Shown here: positions 2,687 to 11,517 of the stretch, one piece after another
How the letters are laid out: the number at the start of each line of letters is the position of its first letter
Position numbering within the stretch: position 1 is the stretch's first letter
Source of the DNA: a virus
Strand: one strand, 5' to 3'
Virus record (IMG/VR): IMGVR_UViG_3300031746_000001
DNA length: 64,000 bases
Program-made: the position numbers and the translations under genes
The notes under the pieces: generated by a model
Told to the model about the DNA's origin: nothing
What the model saw: the letters and a program-made list of their open reading frames with translations, nothing else
Databases searched by the model: none

Positions 2687-3678
2687 GGCAAGACGATTGC
2701 CGAGAGAGATTTGTCCAGAAGCCTCGGATGGTAGGAAGCAAGCTCCTCCACCATCTTCGGAATCGTAGGAATCTCTTCGTAGCCTGCGAGCCTCCATAGT
2801 TCACGGTTGATATTCGCATACACGGTTGACAGCGATCGGTCCAAACCCATCTCATGTGGAGCCCTGCCCTGATGCGGTACGATCCGGATGTCCTCCCGAT
2901 GATAAGCCGTAGCAAAACACTTCAAGAGCTCAAACTTATTGATCCGGTCCCGGGGGACGACGTGCTGGACCCCCCGGAACTTCAACGTGCGATAGTCCCA
3001 CATGATCCCCCAGCAGATCTTGGCGAAGTGCAGGGATGTTATCCCGTTCCAGGTATGGCCAACGAAACCGTTTACGCTGGCCCCCCGTTCCTGGCTCCGA
3101 AACCAGTCGAGCAAGGACTGGTGGGTCCTGAGCTCCGGGCCGACGATAGAACATCGGAGATTGATAAACCGATCCGAGGAAACTTCCCCGAGGCTCTTGG
3201 TCTTGCCGTAGACGTCGGTAGCGTCATGGAGAGCGTTCTCCGAGTACAATCCCGTCTGCCCCGAGAACACGCAGTCCGTGGTAATCTGAATCACCCGGAA
3301 GCCCTCCCACTCCGAGGCGACCGCAAGGAGGTACGGGAAGATCGCATTCACCCGGACCGCCCGCTCGACGCTCTCCCGATCATTCTCCACGATATGCTTG
3401 TTGATCACCCCGATGCAATTCACGACCCAATCCACGCCCTTTAGAGATTCTCCAACATCTCCTGACACACAAAGCTCGGCATCCAGGTGTCGGAACTCCA
3501 CTCCGGGGTAGGACTCCTTCAGCTTAACGTAAAGGTCGGGTCCGGGATCCTCTTCCCGGATTTGAAACCGACCTATGGCCACCAGATGACACGCCCCATC
3601 GAGAACGCCCTGGTAGAAGTAATCCAAGACCATCGACCCGAGCATTCCAGTAGGTCCTAAGACGGCTATGCTCTTCAT
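2683..3678 (-). CDS. RmlD-like NDP-4-keto-6-deoxysugar reductase
   Basis: GPTGMLG, ITTDCVFSG and YGKTK motifs. Confidence 0.85.
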   Translation of the reverse strand: MKSIAVLGPTGMLGSMVLDYFYQGVLDGACHLVAIGRFQIREEDPGPDLYVKLKESYPGVEFRHLDAELCVSGDVGESLKGVDWVVNCIGVINKHIVENDRESVERAVRVNAIFPYLLAVASEWEGFRVIQITTDCVFSGQTGLYSENALHDATDVYGKTKSLGEVSSDRFINLRCSIVGPELRTHQSLLDWFRSQERGASVNGFVGHTWNGITSLHFAKICWGIMWDYRTLKFRGVQHVVPRDRINKFELLKCFATAYHREDIRIVPHQGRAPHEMGLDRSLSTVYANINRELWRLAGYEEIPTIPKMVEELASYHPRLLDKSLSAIVLP

Positions 3679-4358: not shown

Positions 4359-4579
4359 GTTTTCCTCCTGATAAACTGCCGTGCGATCCCATGAGCTGAC
4401 TGCGCCATATTAAGCCCCCCGTTGATCTTCCGAAGGAACTTCTCTTTCTGGCATTTTCTTATCGGGGCAACGGCAACCGTTCCCCGGAGATACCGAGGGA
4501 CAACTTTCTCCATAAGATGCTTGCTCATCTCATCGAACTGGTCGGACTGCATGAACTCTATCAGCTTTTTAGCATCCAT
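4355..4579 (-). CDS. hypothetical protein
   Basis: Coupled ORF. Confidence 0.5.
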   Translation of the reverse strand: MDAKKLIEFMQSDQFDEMSKHLMEKVVPRYLRGTVAVAPIRKCQKEKFLRKINGGLNMAQSAHGIARQFIRRKT

Positions 4580-5004
4580 CAGATTGGCTCCTTAACTCGG
4601 ATTTCCCCATCCGGAACGAAAGGCGCCAAATCGAAGATCGCCAAAGCGTTTCTCATCGCTTCGATCCGACCCTCCGCACCGAGAAAGGTAGTGGTATAGC
4701 GAAATACTTCATCGAGAGAAGCATTATAATCCAAACTGAAAAGTATCCTGCCCGTAGTGACCTCGACGACGCAAAGCCCTTCCTTCTTCTCGGACATCGG
4801 AACGCCGTCTTTGAACCTCTGTAACTGGATGGGTCGCTGGATAAACAGCCGGAACTCCTCAAGGCCGGGAACGGTTATCTCCTCCCCGAGCTCCCGCTTC
4901 CAAGCCACCTCCCCCGGCGTCTCCGTAGTCACCGCCACGAGGAACTCCTTCTGCGATCCCTGCGGATCCAGAACTTCATCCGGATTGGTGATCTGATTAT
5001 TCAT
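4579..5004 (-). CDS. hypothetical protein with tail IRVKEPI
   Basis: ATG shares its A with the CCA of tRNA-Pro. Confidence 0.6.
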   Translation of the reverse strand: MNNQITNPDEVLDPQGSQKEFLVAVTTETPGEVAWKRELGEEITVPGLEEFRLFIQRPIQLQRFKDGVPMSEKKEGLCVVEVTTGRILFSLDYNASLDEVFRYTTTFLGAEGRIEAMRNALAIFDLAPFVPDGEIRVKEPI

Positions 5005-5080
5005 GGTCGGGGAGGCCGGGCTCGAACCGGCGACCTCCTGCTCCCAGGGCAGGCGCTCTTGCCATCTGAGCTACTCCCCG
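5004..5080 (-). tRNA. tRNA-Pro(TGG), C33
   Basis: Cloverleaf; anticodon arm CCTGC-CCTGGGA-GCAGG; CCA encoded. Confidence 0.9.
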
Positions 5081-5090
5081 ATCATCACAG

Positions 5091-5167
5091 TGGTCGGGGT
5101 GAGAGGATTTGAACCTCTGACGTCCTGGTCCCGAACCAGGCGCTCTACCGGACTGAGCCACACCCCG
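5091..5167 (-). tRNA. tRNA-Pro(CGG)
   Basis: Loop TTCGGGA; CCA encoded. Confidence 0.92.
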
Positions 5168-5173
5168 ATCTTT

Positions 5174-5248
5174 AGCGGGGACGACGGGTTTCGATCCCGC
5201 GACCTCCTGCGTGGCATACAGGCGCTCTACCATCTGAGCTACACCCGC
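5174..5248 (-). tRNA. tRNA-Gly(GCC), irregular acceptor stem
   Basis: Loop ATGCCAC; 2 extra nt in the 3' acceptor strand; no CCA. Confidence 0.7.
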
Positions 5249-5256
5249 TCGTCTTA

Positions 5257-5344
5257 TGGCGGAGCGAGAATGATTCGAACATTCGGGACCCGTGAGTCCA
5301 ACGGTTTAGCAAACCGTCGCCTTCGACCACTCGGCCATCGCTCC
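5257..5344 (-). tRNA. tRNA-Ser(GCT)
   Basis: Loop TTGCTAA; long variable arm; CCA. Confidence 0.9.
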
Positions 5345-5350
5345 GGGATC

Positions 5351-5426
5351 TGGTGCCGGAGGGCGGTATCGCGCCGCCTACGCCAGGCTCTTCAGACCTG
5401 CGCTCTACTATTTGAGCTACTCCGGC
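5351..5426 (-). tRNA. tRNA-Phe(GAA)
   Basis: Loop CTGAAGA; atypical T-loop CGCGATA; CCA. Confidence 0.85.
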
Positions 5427-5431
5427 TAATC

Positions 5432-5516
5432 TGGTGCCGAGAGAGGGATTTGAACCCTCACGCCAAAGGCACACGCCCCTCGAACGTGCGTGTCTACCAA
5501 GTTTCACCATCTCGGC
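5432..5516 (-). tRNA. tRNA-Leu(GAG), C33
   Basis: CACGT-TCGAGGG-GCGTG; variable arm; CCA. Confidence 0.88.
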
Positions 5517-5522
5517 ATTAAG

Positions 5523-5593
5523 CTGAGGGAGAAGGAGTCGAACCCTCATCACAAGGTTCAAAGCCTTGCGGCCTACCGTTGGCCTATCCCCCA
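5523..5593 (-). tRNA. tRNA-Gln(TTG)
   Basis: Loop CTTTGAA; no CCA. Confidence 0.85.
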
Positions 5594-5596
5594 TCG

Positions 5597-5680
5597 TGGT
5601 GTCGGGCCGGGGATTCGAACCCCGACGATCGCTCAAATGGGTTTGAGCCATTCGCGTATACCAAGTTCCGCCAGCCCGAC
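5597..5680 (-). tRNA. tRNA-Leu(CAA)
   Basis: Loop CTCAAAC; CCA. Confidence 0.88.
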
Positions 5681-5683
5681 GTT

Positions 5684-5759
5684 TGGCTGAGGGACTGGGA
5701 TTCGAACCCAGATACCGAGGGTCAGAGCCTCGTATCCTATCCAATTAGATGATCCCCCA
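5684..5759 (-). tRNA. tRNA-Gln(CTG)
   Basis: Loop CTCTGAC; CCA. Confidence 0.9.
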
Positions 5760-5762
5760 GAA

Positions 5763-5850
5763 TGGCGGAGACGCCGGGATTTGAACCCGGGGAGCTTTTC
5801 AGCTCGACTGCTTTCCGGACAGCCATCTTAAGCCTCTCGATCACGTCTCC
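5763..5850 (-). tRNA. tRNA-Ser(GGA), C33
   Basis: GCTGT-CCGGAAA-GCAGT; CCA. Confidence 0.88.
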
Positions 5851-5858
5851 CATTACAG

Positions 5859-5945
5859 CGGAGGGCAGGGGACTCGAACCCCCGAGCGCTTTTACACGCC
5901 AGCAGTTTTCAGGACTGCCTCCTCGTACCAGCCGGATCGCCCTCC
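5859..5945 (-). tRNA. tRNA-Ser(TGA), C33
   Basis: GCAGT-CCTGAAA-ACTGC; G at position 8; no CCA. Confidence 0.82.
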
Positions 5946-5950
5946 ATCTA

Positions 5951-6037
5951 TGGCGGAGAGTGAGGGAATCGAACCCTCGACCGCAGTTAACGGTAACGGT
6001 TTTCGGAACCGCTTCCTCGACCAACCGGACACTCTCC
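5951..6037 (-). tRNA. tRNA-Ser(CGA), C33
   Basis: GCGGT-TCCGAAA-ACCGT; CCA. Confidence 0.85.
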
Positions 6038-6044
6038 CTGAAAT

Positions 6045-6132
6045 TGGTGGTGAGGGCAGGATTTGAACCTGCGTGGCTTGTCGGCTTCCGCTCTACAGGC
6101 GGACCCAATCGACCGGACTCTGGCACCTCACC
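6045..6132 (-). tRNA. tRNA-Tyr(GTA)
   Basis: Loop CTGTAGA; variable arm; CCA. Confidence 0.88.
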
Positions 6133-6364
6133 CTTTCTTCTTGACCTTCGGGATCCGGACCGTGGACAGAATCCCCCGAACTTCCATGATCCCTTCCACC
6201 TTCCCGGCAAAGAAGCAGAAGGCTTGAAGGCTCTCCTTCGAGTTTCCCCGCTCGACCAGAGCCTTAAATTGACGCTCGCCTAACTGCTTGTCGGCCCAGG
6301 CGACCGTTCCTTTCTTTGGACCCTCAGGCTCCTTCTTCTTGTGTGATCTCACTGGTTTCTTCAT
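6128..6364 (-). CDS. small basic hypothetical protein inside the tRNA array
   Basis: AAAGGAGG SD before ATG; fills the only large gap in the array. Confidence 0.65.
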   Translation of the reverse strand: MKKPVRSHKKKEPEGPKKGTVAWADKQLGERQFKALVERGNSKESLQAFCFFAGKVEGIMEVRGILSTVRIPKVKKKG

Positions 6365-6383
6365 GCATCCCTCCTTTGGTTAA

Positions 6384-6456
6384 AGCTGGCAAGAGGCATC
6401 GAACCCCCAACCTTCTCCTTACGAAAGAGACGCTCTACCGTTTGAGCTATGCCAGC
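6384..6456 (-). tRNA. tRNA-Thr(CGT)
   Basis: Loop TTCGTAA; no CCA. Confidence 0.85.
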
Positions 6457-6460
6457 ATTC

Positions 6461-6537
6461 TGGACGCGGCAGGGGGAGTCGAACCCCCGCATAGCGGTTC
6501 TGCAGACCGCCGCCTTTAGCCACTTGGCGATGCCGCG
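6461..6537 (-). tRNA. tRNA-Cys(GCA)
   Basis: Loop CTGCAGA; CCA. Confidence 0.9.
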
Positions 6538-6543
6538 ATATCT

Positions 6544-6618
6544 TGGGGTGACCGGGGAGTGTCGAACTCCTGTTCCGTGGGCCACAGCCACGTGTCCTAC
6601 CGTTGGACGACGGCCACC
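6544..6618 (-). tRNA. tRNA-His(GTG)
   Basis: Loop CTGTGGC; G-1 and C73; CCA. Confidence 0.88.
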
Positions 6619-6621
6619 ATA

Positions 6622-6695
6622 AGCCGACGAGAGGAGTCGAACCCCCAACCTTCGCATTACAGGTGCGTTGCTCTACCGGGTTGAGCTACATCGGC
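6622..6695 (-). tRNA. tRNA-Thr(TGT), C33
   Basis: Loop CCTGTAA; no CCA. Confidence 0.85.
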
Positions 6696-6699
6696 ATTC

Positions 6700-6774
6700 T
6701 GGCTCTGGCGGGAGGAGTCGAACCTCCAACAACCCGCTTAACAGCCGGGCACTCTACCGTTGAGTCACGCCAGA
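6700..6774 (-). tRNA. tRNA-Asn(GTT)
   Basis: Loop CTGTTAA; CCA. Confidence 0.88.
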
Positions 6775-6778
6775 ACAT

Positions 6779-6863
6779 TGGTGGGGGAGAAGGGATTTGA
6801 ACCCTTACGCCATAAGCACTGGTGTCTGGAACCAGCGTGTCTACCAAATTTCACCACTCCCCC
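6779..6863 (-). tRNA. tRNA-Leu(CAG), C33
   Basis: CTGGT-TCCAGAC-ACCAG; CCA. Confidence 0.88.
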
Positions 6864-6866
6864 GTT

Positions 6867-6942
6867 TGGTGGGCCCTCCGGGAATCGAACCCGGAACCTT
6901 CGGCTTATGAGACCGGCGCTCTTCCATTTGAGCTAAGGGCCT
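6867..6942 (-). tRNA. tRNA with CAT anticodon (Ile2-like or elongator Met)
   Basis: Loop CTCATAA; CCA. Confidence 0.85.
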
Positions 6943-6943
6943 C

Positions 6944-7019
6944 TGGTGGGGACGGGAGGACTCGAACCTCCAATCTCCTGCTTGTAGGGCAGGCATTCTC
7001 GCCATTGAAATACATCCCC
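6944..7019 (-). tRNA. tRNA-Val(TAC), C33
   Basis: CCTGC-CCTACAA-GCAGG; CCA. Confidence 0.88.
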
Positions 7020-7025
7020 AATTTT

Positions 7026-7102
7026 TGGCAGGAGCGAGAGGATTTGAACCCCTATCAACACGGGTTGGAGCCGTGCGTTCTGATCCATTGAACTACGCTC
7101 CT
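7026..7102 (-). tRNA. tRNA-Trp(CCA)
   Basis: Loop CTCCAAC; CCA. Confidence 0.9.
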
Positions 7103-7103
7103 A

Positions 7104-7192
7104 TGGTGGCGGGCCTGGGATTCGGACCCAGACGGCTATGTAAAGGCCATGAGGGTTTAAGCCTCACTTGTCTACCATTTCATCAGCCCGCC
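7104..7192 (-). tRNA. tRNA-Leu(TAA)
   Basis: Loop CTTAAAC; long variable arm; CCA. Confidence 0.88.
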
Positions 7193-7205: not shown

Positions 7206-7237
7206 TGGTTGCGGGGCTGGGAGTCGCACCCAGAATC
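7206..7237 (-). pseudogene. orphaned 3' part (T-arm, acceptor strand, CCA) of tRNA-Met
   Basis: ATTCTGGG-TGCGACT-CCCAG-CCCCGCA-ACCA, paralogous to the 3' end of the tRNA at 7923-7997. Confidence 0.8.
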
Positions 7238-7305
7238 CGACAAGGACTTGCTTTCCGTAACCCTACTGTGCTATGATTTAACCGTAACCTAAATCGGAGA
7301 TACCC

Positions 7306-7911
7306 ATGAGAAAAGTATGGCAGTCCGCCGGTGGCATAGCCACAGCTAAAATCCTCAGAGAACGGGCCCTCAAAAAATATTACAAGCATCCCTCAGTCTG
7401 CCTTCAATGCCATAAGGTTATCGAGGTTCCAGATGGCCACAAGGTTGGAGAAACGAAATCCAAATGCTTCTGCAACCACACTTGTGCCGCAATTTTCAAT
7501 AATGCCCGAAGACGCCGAACCCACAAAACATACTCCTATGAATGTGAACGATGCCACGGTTCATATCCCATTCAATATAATTTCAAAAGACGGTTTTGCA
7601 ATGACTGCCTTCAAATTATCAAGTTCGAAAGAAGCATTGCGAGCAAAACCAAAGGCGAATTCTTTAAATCAAAGAACACTTGGCAATTAGCTAGGAGCAA
7701 AATAGCTCGCATGGCAAGACTGATCATAAGGAAATCCGGGATTAAAGCAAAATGTAGAATCTGTGGATATCGAAAACACGTTGAATGCTCTCACAATAAA
7801 AGGGTCGCAGACTTCCCGGACACGGCTTTCATATCTGAAATTAACAATATCAAGAACCTTTCTTATCTCTGCCCTAACCATCACTGGGAACATGAAAACG
7901 GATTACTATAA
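7306..7911 (+). CDS. free-standing HNH endonuclease, antisense to the tRNA array
   Basis: FCxxxC, CRICG...ECSH...N...NL..LCPNHHWE; AT-rich; own SD and TTGCTT-18-TATGAT promoter. Confidence 0.85.
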   Translation: MRKVWQSAGGIATAKILRERALKKYYKHPSVCLQCHKVIEVPDGHKVGETKSKCFCNHTCAAIFNNARRRRTHKTYSYECERCHGSYPIQYNFKRRFCNDCLQIIKFERSIASKTKGEFFKSKNTWQLARSKIARMARLIIRKSGIKAKCRICGYRKHVECSHNKRVADFPDTAFISEINNIKNLSYLCPNHHWEHENGLL

Positions 7912-7922
7912 TCTTCTTAATC

Positions 7923-7997
7923 TGGGAGCGGGGCTCGGATTCGCACCGAGAATTTTCAGGTTATGGGCCTGACGAGTTGCTATTGCTCCACCCCGCC
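7923..7997 (-). tRNA. tRNA-Met(CAT), initiator-like acceptor, C33
   Basis: TCAGG-CCCATAA-CCTGA; GGCGGGG/CCCCGCT acceptor; CCA. Confidence 0.85.
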
Positions 7998-8001
7998 CCT
8001 T

Positions 8002-8064
8002 CTGACTTACCGGATTGGTCTATCCCGCTACGCCCCTGACTTACTGTTGGTCTACCCCGCAACG
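8002..8064 (-). repeat. two tandem tRNA-Met-like 5' fragments
   Basis: TGCGGGG-TA-GACC..AA-GTCAG and AGCGGGA-TA-GACC..AA-GTCAG, i.e. acceptor 5' strand plus D-arm. Confidence 0.6.
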
Positions 8065-9618: not shown

Positions 9619-9620
9619 TG

Positions 9621-9696
9621 TCGGGGCGATGGGATTTGAACCCATGATCGCCTGCTTGAAGGGCAGGTGTGTTAGGCCGGACTACACCACGCCCCG
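9621..9696 (-). tRNA. tRNA-Glu(TTC), C33
   Basis: CCTGC-CCTTCAA-GCAGG; Asp/Glu-type D-arm; ends ACAA. Confidence 0.82.
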
Positions 9697-9959: not shown

Positions 9960-10790
9960 TTAGAAGAAGAACAGTGCCCTGGACTTTTGCGTATGGTCTT
10001 CTGCAATCTTCGCATAGCTCGGTTTCAATTCAATGCCCACCGAATGACGGTTGAGCTTGATCGACGCATCAAGCGTCGTCCCAACCCCCACAAACGGATC
10101 CAGAACCCAGTCCCACTCGTCCGTGAACAGCGTGATAAACCACTCCGGAAGCACCTGCGGGAATGCGGCACTGTGAATCCGGTTCTGTGTCTCTGTCGGC
10201 AAGGTTAAAACGTTCGTTGGGTAGACCTTCGTCCGGCCAACCCAGTTTGCGATCTTGGACCCGAAGCCGCTCTGAGTCTTGTTCGTCCTCCGGATGTAGT
10301 CATCCCCCCACATCTTCCGTGCCCGGGTGACCGTCCTCTCACTGGCCGGAATCATCACCCGATCCTGGAACATCTTGAACTTGGGCGTCTTGTTAAACTG
10401 CAGAAGCCGCTCCCAGGCGTCCCGGAATCGGTTCGGCCACTTCCCCGGATAACAGCAAACCTTGTTCCAGATGAACTCCTCCGTCCACAACCAACCCTGA
10501 TCCACCAACGCCAGAATCAACTCGAGGACGTAAGTAAGCCGCTGTCCGTTCTCCGCACTCTCCTTGATATTCAGGATGAACGTCCCGGTCGGCTTCAGGG
10601 TCCGTAGGAACTGCTCACTGCGGGGGAGAAACCATTCCACATACTTCTCCGGAGGGACACCCTGATACGTTTTCTTCCGGCGATCCGAGTAAGGCGGGGA
10701 AGTAATTATTAAATCGAAACAATTCTCGGGATATTTAACGAGAACATCCAAACAATCCCCCACCTCGACGCTCGATTTTAATTCTCTCAT
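9960..10790 (-). CDS. beta-class N4/N6 DNA methyltransferase
   Basis: TSPPY, HSAAFP and LDPFVGVGTT. Confidence 0.92.
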   Translation of the reverse strand: MRELKSSVEVGDCLDVLVKYPENCFDLIITSPPYSDRRKKTYQGVPPEKYVEWFLPRSEQFLRTLKPTGTFILNIKESAENGQRLTYVLELILALVDQGWLWTEEFIWNKVCCYPGKWPNRFRDAWERLLQFNKTPKFKMFQDRVMIPASERTVTRARKMWGDDYIRRTNKTQSGFGSKIANWVGRTKVYPTNVLTLPTETQNRIHSAAFPQVLPEWFITLFTDEWDWVLDPFVGVGTTLDASIKLNRHSVGIELKPSYAKIAEDHTQKSRALFFF

Positions 10791-10851
10791 AGACTTGCTA
10801 TTGGTAAATCACTTTATGGTATACTTATATACACACTCAAGCGGAGGTCTC

Positions 10852-11517
10852 ATGAACACACTCCTAATATCTTACCTGGCCGGAGCGATGGACTCTGATG
10901 GCTGGTTTATGATACACCACTACCATCATAATCCAAAGTGGAATGACATTTATACTGAACGCATTGGGCTCAAACAAGTAACCCCTCAAATCCCGAATCT
11001 TCTTCTTCAAAACTTCGGAGGCTATATCTACAAGGTAAAACCATCCACGCCCAACGGGAAAATGCTCTATTCATTTGATTGCCGTGGAGCCCTGGCGGTT
11101 AAAGCCTGCGAAGCCCTCCTCCCACATCTCGTCATAAAAAGGAGACAAGCAGAGTTAATCATCGAATTCAGCAAAACCCGAGAAAATAACTGTCAGACCA
11201 TATCTCAGTGGTTTCAAAGAGAGTTCCCAAACTGGCAAACCATGAAGCTCATCACCACTAAAGAAGCCCAGAAAATACTCGGATATGAAAACCCAAACAG
11301 CATATACCAGGCCATCTACACGGGGACCCTTCTCTCGATTCCACACAATAGATCGGGAAGAAAATCCATTCCCTGCATTCCTATGTCTCTCGTCGAGCGC
11401 CTCTCAAAATTAAATTTCCCCACTAACCGCAGAAAAACCCTTCCCCCGGAACTTGTCGCCTGGCGTGAACGTCTACACAGAGAAGTTAAAAATCTCAACA
11501 AAGTCGGTCTCGTATAG
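10852..11517 (+). CDS. free-standing LAGLIDADG endonuclease
   Basis: YLAGAMDSDG and LLPHLVIKRRQA; GGAGG SD before ATG 10852; AT-rich. Confidence 0.85.
   Translation: MNTLLISYLAGAMDSDGWFMIHHYHHNPKWNDIYTERIGLKQVTPQIPNLLLQNFGGYIYKVKPSTPNGKMLYSFDCRGALAVKACEALLPHLVIKRRQAELIIEFSKTRENNCQTISQWFQREFPNWQTMKLITTKEAQKILGYENPNSIYQAIYTGTLLSIPHNRSGRKSIPCIPMSLVERLSKLNFPTNRRKTLPPELVAWRERLHREVKNLNKVGLV

Follow-up and report, generated by a model that had tools for sequence, protein, structure and literature searches.

A putative HNH homing-endonuclease cassette that splits an initiator-type tRNA-Met gene of a tRNA-rich phage and brings a replacement copy

In a 64,000-nucleotide stretch of viral DNA (the window; IMG/VR record IMGVR_UViG_3300031746_000001), a tRNA-Met(CAT) gene of the initiator type is split in its anticodon arm by a block that holds an HNH endonuclease gene on the opposite strand and a second, complete tRNA-Met(CAT). 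The locus is best read, from its own sequence and that of its relatives, as a free-standing homing-endonuclease cassette that has invaded a resident tRNA gene together with a replacement copy of its target, a reading to which a probability of about 0.8 is assigned. In what follows, the split gene is the resident tRNA, the complete tRNA inside the block is the current tRNA, and the displaced 3' remnant of the resident gene is the orphan. The parts of the locus are as follows, with L090 denoting a related contig in which the gene is uninterrupted.

7206-7240, minus strand: the orphan, or 3' remnant of the resident tRNA-Met(CAT); 34/35 positions agree with the 3' part of L090:7043-7117
7241-7305, plus strand: leader of the HNH gene with a GGAG-type ribosome-binding site, within the inserted block and with no counterpart in L090
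7306-7911, plus strand: gene for a 201-aa HNH endonuclease (Pfam PF13391), antisense to the tRNA array
7923-7997, minus strand: the current tRNA, a complete, initiator-like and putatively cassette-borne tRNA-Met(CAT), called by ARAGORN and Rfam
8002-8029, minus strand: proximal 5' remnant, from a further tRNA-Met of the resident type (about positions 1-26), within the insert
8032-8061, minus strand: distal 5' remnant, positions 1-30 of the resident tRNA-Met, 28/30 identical to L090:7043-7072

The uninterrupted state is provided by L090, which belongs to an IMG/VR contig of 160,139 bp that has terminal repeats and a completeness rating of 100%, and which was found by a search with the methyltransferase that neighbours the locus. 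Window and L090 are 92-94% identical on both sides of the locus, and the complete L090 contig has no match to the window HNH protein. An uninterrupted ortholog of the tRNA, which the original prediction had proposed to look for, is thus at hand: directly after the methyltransferase gene, L090 carries a single tRNA-Met(CAT) without interruption (L090:7043-7117). Since the L090 state cannot be derived from the window state by simple deletion, it is the window that carries an insertion. An outside reference of this kind was needed because, within the window, the orphan resembles the neighbouring tRNA-Leu(TAA) at its 3' end (86% over 29 nt) almost as closely as it does the current tRNA, so that its parentage was settled only by L090. 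The original prediction had allowed that the fragment might stem from a different tRNA in relatives lacking the HNH gene, and the outcome comes close to this, the orphan belonging to the intact tRNA-Met of L090. An exact-word search for the 3' end of the resident tRNA returned only the L090 contig and the unrelated contig L165.

Aligned with L090, the insert measures 791 bp (7241-8031), lies in the anticodon arm of the resident tRNA and replaces 10 nt, namely the anticodon loop and three stem bases. The resident gene is left as a 30-nt 5' piece (8032-8061) and a 35-nt 3' piece (7206-7240). The 3' piece contains the last two bases of the anticodon stem, the variable loop, the T-arm, the acceptor 3' strand, the discriminator A and CCA; together with its downstream flank it is 97.8% identical to L090 over 46 nt, and it matches positions 44-73 of a tRNA-Met profile (nhmmer). 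No tRNA-like sequence lies ahead of it on the minus strand, and neither ARAGORN nor Rfam calls a tRNA at 7206-7240. The 5' piece ends in the 5' strand of the anticodon stem, continues a 94% collinear alignment with L090 and aligns to the L090 tRNA with a score of 50 (shuffles, 10.5 +/- 2.1); its first seven bases are the exact complement of the orphan acceptor strand. Independently of L090, a repeat search had flagged this distal remnant as resembling the 5' end of the current tRNA.

Read in the direction of the tRNA, the insert consists of 2 bases, the proximal 5' remnant (8002-8029), 4 bases, the current tRNA, 11 further bases, the HNH gene on the opposite strand and finally the 65-nt leader of that gene. 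The proximal remnant is of the resident type: 24/25 aligned bases match positions 2-26 of the L090 tRNA with one 2-nt indel, and the alignment to the resident type scores 33 (shuffles, 10.6 +/- 2.1), as against 15 (p 0.05) for that to the current tRNA. It stops four bases short of the distal remnant, after an identical nine bases. In the repeat search the proximal remnant falls in family D3 and the distal one in D2 and D3, while the orphan and the 3' end of the current tRNA (7923-7951), 717 nt apart, form repeat D1 (32 nt, 84% identical; local alignment score 37 against 11.2 +/- 2.2 in 2000 shuffles). The current tRNA itself is a strong call, with 49.2 bits in Rfam at a cut-off of 29. The insert differs from its surroundings in composition, with a GC content of 44% (42% in the HNH ORF) against 55% for the window and about 60% for the flanks. 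The HNH ORF is the sole ORF of at least 100 aa that lies wholly within the insert, and no sigma-70-like promoter was found upstream of it on the plus strand. A hidden tRNA 5' part in the leader was considered and rejected, since local alignment of the 65 nt to the resident 5' part scores at shuffle level (p about 0.56).

Two familiar classes of element were also considered and rejected for the window. Integrase-mediated insertion at an att site in the tRNA gene is not supported, as the insert holds no recombinase and the repeats are only 84% alike, with no identical core. Rfam gives no group I intron match near the locus at E up to 1, and a reading in which the exons are joined by group I splicing fails because 10 nt of the tRNA are missing from the remnants and the insert itself contains a complete tRNA.

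The window reads like part of a large tRNA-rich phage. Nearly all of its long ORFs are on the minus strand, with several DNA methyltransferases and a helicase among their products, and a search of the phage GenBank collection returned only matches to unrelated mycobacteriophage tRNAs. The tRNA genes of the window are distributed as follows.

5004-7192, minus strand: tRNA array of 22 genes (ARAGORN)
5354-5426, minus strand: a tRNA called by Rfam only (51.4 bits), without an ARAGORN call
7923-7997 (minus strand) and 9620-9696: two tRNA genes outside the array (ARAGORN/Rfam)

Window and L090 also differ elsewhere. Between tRNA-Met and tRNA-Leu(TAA), L090 has a 92-aa ORF without a Pfam match (L090:7148-7426) that has no counterpart there in the window, and about 340 bp between tRNA-Leu(CAA) and tRNA-Gln(TTG) (L090:9031-9370) are likewise missing from the window. 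From tRNA-Gly(GCC) to tRNA-Pro(CGG), L090 carries ten extra tRNA genes (Lys x2, Ile, Arg x4, Gly, Ala and Asp; L090:9795-10834); the window array lacks these ten at about 5170-5250, so that the two phages differ by a whole tRNA block. Conversely, an 800-bp AT-richer block of the window (10717-11516, GC about 40-46%), flanked by two methyltransferase ORFs, is skipped by the alignment and absent from L090. It holds a plus-strand ORF (10795-11517) for which Pfam gives no match at E up to 0.01, and it looks like a second nuclease-type insertion.

The original prediction had placed an antisense HNH gene between the two tRNA 3' ends, and the ORF at 7306-7911 on the plus strand bears this out. Its product comprises an N-terminal Cys-rich region and a C-terminal HNH core, the latter matching Pfam HNH_2 (PF13391) over residues 150-200; the match is marginal (E 1.5e-4, 22 bits against a cut-off of 21). 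A protein search yielded 33 homologues, 32 besides the protein's own entry; the full-length ones are 35-44% identical to it, and the same Pfam domain is precomputed for 29 of those 32. All 16 invariant columns of a 30-sequence homologue alignment are kept in the window protein, including a CxxC, the His and Asn residues and a C..HH motif; C150, C153, H163, N180, N184, C189, H192 and H193 are invariant across 30 sequences that include it. The predicted model has a pLDDT of 94.6, and Foldseek returned weak rows only, all with E above 0.2, among which are the HNH domains of VcaM4I, Cap5, TagI, Gme HNH and colicin E7 (60-90 residues). A PDB sequence search gave E above 0.4. The homologues sit on many long metagenomic contigs, and the identical HNH protein is also encoded on contigs of SRR9651338, SRR9617950, ERZ27247683 and ERZ27247989. 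As a single query the protein found no match in IMG/VR, whereas an alignment-based scan did find loci.

The current and the resident tRNA share an uncommon design. Both are cloverleafs with a three-pair D-stem, a D-loop without GG, C32 and C33, a T-loop whose usual second T is replaced by G, and two traits of bacterial initiator tRNAs, A11-U24 in the D-stem and the acceptor signature GCGGGG at positions 2-7; the current tRNA further shows G1.U72, C73, the anticodon loop CCCATAA and the T-loop TGCGAAT. At the same T-loop position tRNA-Leu(TAA) (window 7104-7192) has C, and four other HNH-adjacent tRNAs have the T-loops TGCAAAT or TGCAAGT. In spite of the common design, the current tRNA and that of L090 are identical at only 55/75 positions, with differences in all four stems. 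None of the 20 differences falls in the anticodon loop or the T-loop. Fourteen are in stems, where they make up seven pairs (four of the five anticodon-stem pairs and three others), each changed on both sides and all still paired; both molecules have therefore been under selection as tRNAs. They look, from this pattern, like functional alleles of one odd tRNA type after divergence.

The pattern also decides what becomes of the central claim of the original prediction, according to which an HNH insertion rebuilt the tRNA's 3' end with compensatory changes. Much of what it described stands. The T-arms, acceptor 3' strands and tails that it quoted agree with a minus-strand reading of the orphan (7206-7240) and of the current 3' end (7923-7951), and the two-sided change of the T-stem is real, the third pair being G-C in the orphan and C-G in the current tRNA, with T-loops that differ at one base. 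The HNH gene does belong to an insertion within a tRNA gene, the orphan does represent the resident 3' end that was displaced, and pairing is kept. What falls is the rebuilding of a 3' end on the resident gene. The L090 tRNA corresponds to the distal 5' remnant plus the orphan and resembles the current tRNA at only those 55 positions, so that the current tRNA is foreign in its entirety and probably came in with the inserted block. The proposed recoding at the level of RNA structure gives way likewise, as the changes resemble the divergence of two alleles in every stem and not a local event at the 3' end.

The same comparison bears on a mixed origin, in which the HNH element brought a new 3' end only and the current tRNA joins a resident 5' part to an imported, compensatorily recoded 3' part. 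The likeness of the orphan to the current 3' end (84% over 32 nt) and the two-sided stem change would suit such an event, and related loci such as L011 could be partial replacements. However, the 5' half of the current tRNA is as divergent from L090 as its 3' half, 10 of the 20 differences falling within the first 30 nt, and the resident 5' part survives as the separate remnant at 8032-8061 (28/30 identical to the L090 tRNA). Contradicted in this way by L090, import of a 3' end alone is extremely unlikely.

The original prediction also pointed to the 1-72 pair and the discriminator base, and these do differ: the old gene has U1-A72 (a weak pair) and A73, the current tRNA G1.U72 (a wobble) and C73. 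Neither thus has a strong Watson-Crick pair at 1-72, as is characteristic of bacterial tRNA-fMet, and most HNH-adjacent CAT tRNAs have a mismatch or weak pair there (U.U, C.A, C.U or U-A). Weak 1-72 pairs should suffice for formylation. A base other than A at position 73 occurs in 3/26 distinct HNH-adjacent CAT tRNAs, and C73 in the current tRNA only. Three consecutive G-C pairs at the close of the anticodon stem are a further trait of bacterial initiator tRNAs; the resident type has three, the current tRNA two plus an A-U. On account of C73 and of only two closing G-C pairs, the fitness of the current tRNA as an initiator, or at all, is in doubt. An exact-word search for the current tRNA returned nothing in IMG/VR or the JGI metagenomes, so that no donor was found. 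On the unrelated metagenome contig L165, a tRNA-Met (7890-7964, minus strand) has the canonical C1xA72 acceptor of an initiator and, like the phage tRNAs, the unusual D- and T-loops; it may be the host-type initiator from which the latter derive.

The window is one case of a recurrent association. Loci were gathered by protein identity and by the alignment-based IMG/VR scan and clustered at 90% identity, which gave 52 non-redundant HNH clusters (51 of the loci fetched with the homologues, and the window); tRNAs were called with ARAGORN and by nhmmer, for which 18 HNH-adjacent initiator-like tRNAs supplied the profile. A complete initiator-like or CAT tRNA lies at most 200 nt from the HNH gene in 25/52 clusters, a tRNA-Met fragment within the same distance in 18/52, and one or the other in 39/52; the remaining 13 have no Met tRNA or fragment nearby. 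CAT tRNAs make up only 30/370 of all tRNAs in these loci. Where the tRNA is complete, it follows the HNH stop codon in sense at 6-23 nt or in antisense, as in the window, at 9-19 nt, or else it lies 75-164 nt ahead of the HNH start. The remnants end at profile positions 26-44, with a mode at 34, the anticodon. On the HNH tree, loci with the same neighbouring tRNA species group together (21 changes, as against 44 with shuffled labels; 0/200 shuffles as low), although on a quick tree this is weak support, as related sequences share labels anyway.

Several loci resemble the window in detail. L024 has its three-part layout of a 5' remnant, a full tRNA with antisense HNH gene, and a 3' remnant; L031 is a mirror image; in it the profile finds the full tRNA and the 3' remnant, whereas the 5' remnant was recognized only by eye. 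In L020 and in L023, a 3' remnant lies antisense and upstream of the HNH gene, and L011 has a 5' remnant, the HNH gene and a full tRNA without a 3' remnant. In two further loci (L067:2639-3462 and L079:2503-3321) the HNH gene alone splits an initiator-like tRNA in the anticodon: the stop codon of the ORF is the TAA of the loop, both tRNA halves keep matching stems, and there is a conserved leader of about 95 nt. There is no G ahead of the 3' junction in either. A group I intron was also looked for and rejected in related loci, with no match in 10 of them, the split ones included, at E up to 0.01.

Some other features were seen at these loci. L023 carries a tRNA-Met 'scar' (2880-2945, minus strand) 69 nt before the HNH gene, in which the variable loop, the T-arm and a matching acceptor 3' strand follow directly on the acceptor 5' strand and the beginning of the D-arm, the D/anticodon region between them being deleted. 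Directly after a tRNA-Met 3' fragment in L047, there is an HDV-like ribozyme match (3312-3375) of 37 bits at a cut-off of 44. In the same tRNA region, L081 has matches to a tmRNA (65.6 bits) and, below threshold, to a GOLLD RNA (72 bits, cut-off 150), at 2008-2384 and 4579-5054.

The loci split by an HNH gene alone lend some colour to assembly on site in two steps, whereby the nuclease gene split the resident tRNA by itself and a second tRNA-Met copy, gained or duplicated later, was kept because it restored function, with no mobile unit of tRNA and HNH gene. The variable arrangement of the full tRNA, on either side of the HNH gene and in either orientation across loci, is not what a fixed cassette predicts, and the idiosyncratic loops common to the current and resident tRNAs suggest an origin from a close lineage. 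In the window, however, the two halves of the resident gene enclose a single uninterrupted block that comprises the HNH gene, the foreign tRNA and the extra 5' remnant; remnants flanking an HNH gene and a full tRNA recur in L024 and probably L031, which are unrelated loci; and no intermediate was found. Two-step assembly is accordingly judged unlikely, and arrival of the tRNA and the nuclease gene together is preferred.

Beyond phages, a scan of bacterial genomes recovered more distant HNH relatives, 20 of which lie just upstream of an antisense tRNA-Arg(CCT) (L128, L136, L138, L139, L143, L144, L146-L148, L150-L152 and L154-L161), at distances from overlap to about 110 nt; their hosts include Hymenobacter, Nomurabacteria, Dependentiae, Chloroflexota and other bacteria. 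Relatives of the window HNH also occur in cyanobacterial genomes in the same scan. No tRNA remnants were found beside the tRNA-Arg(CCT)-linked genes. Such remnant-free relatives in cyanobacterial and other bacterial genomes would fit an HNH protein that is kept by tRNA arrays as a factor of theirs and is no homing enzyme, the fragments being ordinary recombination scars of a shuffling array. An HNH gene conserved in cyanobacteria upstream of long tRNA arrays shares the induction of the tRNA operon (PMC8421152), and window and L090 do differ by other array indels too. That the HNH gene is absent from a complete phage of 92-94% identity, has a foreign GC content and runs antisense to all of its surroundings is, however, hard to square with such a role, as is its position exactly in the disrupted gene, with breakpoints that match those of the family. 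A function within tRNA arrays is therefore regarded as a very unlikely explanation of the locus.

Invasion by a homing-endonuclease cassette remains the preferred reading, and two features by which homing endonucleases are recognized are found here: presence and absence among collinear relatives, with L090 lacking the gene, and repeated siting at a conserved target, in 39 of the 52 clusters. In a mixed infection, the HNH enzyme would cut HNH-free tRNA alleles in or near the anticodon arm, and repair from the HNH-bearing genome would copy the nuclease gene along with the neighbouring tRNA. The breakpoints suggest a target site in the anticodon arm, and resection could have shifted them. The cassette tRNA probably escapes cutting, as four of the five anticodon-stem pairs and three other stem pairs differ from those of the resident. 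GTCAG, which forms the last five bases of the proximal 5' remnant and also occurs four bases before the end of the distal one, is kept in the current tRNA, so that immunity to the nuclease is not evident from the sequence. The cassette tRNA would probably also take over the lost function of the split gene. By supplying that function, the element would cost the phage little, much as an intron does, through gene replacement and not splicing. Two stacked 5' remnants are not accounted for by a single simple homing event; the proximal one may record an earlier invasion of the site, or it may be a scar that came along from the donor.

A broader and more tentative reading, which is possible and still somewhat doubtful, takes the whole HNH family as a dedicated 'cut and replace' driver of initiator tRNA genes. 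Its members would destroy these genes at the anticodon and spread as a unit with a replacement tRNA. Compensatory change would keep the stems of that tRNA different, and the tRNA would thereby evade its own nuclease as well as recombination with the remnants. The stacked 5' remnants would then represent serial invasions, and sister clades would act likewise at other tRNAs, such as tRNA-Arg(CCT) in bacteria.

The locus offers material for several questions. It contains a natural matched pair of initiator-type tRNAs, which agree in their loops and differ in seven recoded stem pairs, in the 1-72 pair and in the discriminator, and a candidate nuclease with a defined putative target of 75 bp, for which about 50 related cases allow target choice to be compared. 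The proposed invasion would explain a class of tRNA fragments and odd tRNAs that recur when tRNA arrays of large phages are annotated, and it suggests nuclease-driven replacement as a route of turnover for phage tRNA sets.

Among known systems, all8564 and its homologues are HNH genes upstream of long cyanobacterial tRNA arrays and have been linked to horizontally mobile arrays in bacteria and phages (PMC8421152). They share with the window the physical linkage of an HNH gene to a tRNA array; the report on them describes linkage and co-regulation, not the tRNA-gene insertion, remnants or replacement copy seen here (PMC8421152). Closer in behaviour is SegB of phage T4, a homing endonuclease in a tRNA cluster that recognises a tRNA motif and drives the inheritance of neighbouring tRNA genes (PMC2330249); it has also been reported to amplify tRNA loci (PMC13096335). 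SegB and the window element are both nuclease genes embedded in a phage tRNA cluster and absent from close relatives. By recognising a motif of tRNA genes, cutting inside them and carrying along itself and the neighbouring tRNA genes, the free-standing SegB also resembles the homing proposed here. The differences lie in the fold, which is GIY-YIG in SegB and HNH in the window, and in placement: SegB is flanked by intact tRNA genes and has the T-arm of many tRNAs as its target, whereas the window element sits inside one tRNA species, leaves both halves as remnants and belongs to a family tied to initiator-like tRNA-Met.

The choice of target recalls I-Ssp6803I, reportedly described by Bonocora and Shub in 2001 as the endonuclease of a group I intron in cyanobacterial tRNA-fMet genes. 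Both it and the enzyme proposed here would be homing enzymes aimed at the anticodon region of initiator tRNA genes. I-Ssp6803I, however, is a PD-(D/E)XK protein in a self-splicing intron that restores the tRNA at the RNA level, whereas no group I intron is detectable in the window and function would come from a second complete gene. The supply of replacement sequence has a parallel in fungal mitochondria, for example in atp6 of Allomyces, where Paquin, Laforest and Lang in 1994 are said to have found an endonuclease ORF that arrived with a replacement 3' end of the invaded gene. In both cases a nuclease gene moves with part of its target and the displaced resident end persists as a downstream pseudogene, an arrangement like the one that the original prediction proposed; targets of the atp6 type, though, are protein genes of which the end only is replaced, whereas the window element supplies an RNA gene as a whole and has remnants on either side. 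Islands and prophages that carry an integrase insert into tRNA genes, whose 3' ends they duplicate; with them, too, foreign DNA separates an intact tRNA from an orphan 3' end. Unlike them, the window has no recombinase nearby, its repeats are 84% alike where an att core is identical, a 5' remnant is present as well, and the breakpoint is in the anticodon arm with 10 nt lost.

A literature search, incomplete in coverage, returned no account of an initiator-type tRNA gene split by a nuclease that supplies a complete replacement copy. Homing endonucleases usually spare the host by residing in a spliced intron or intein, or by sitting between genes. The element in the window appears to use a third route to harmlessness, in that it breaks an RNA gene and carries a whole substitute.
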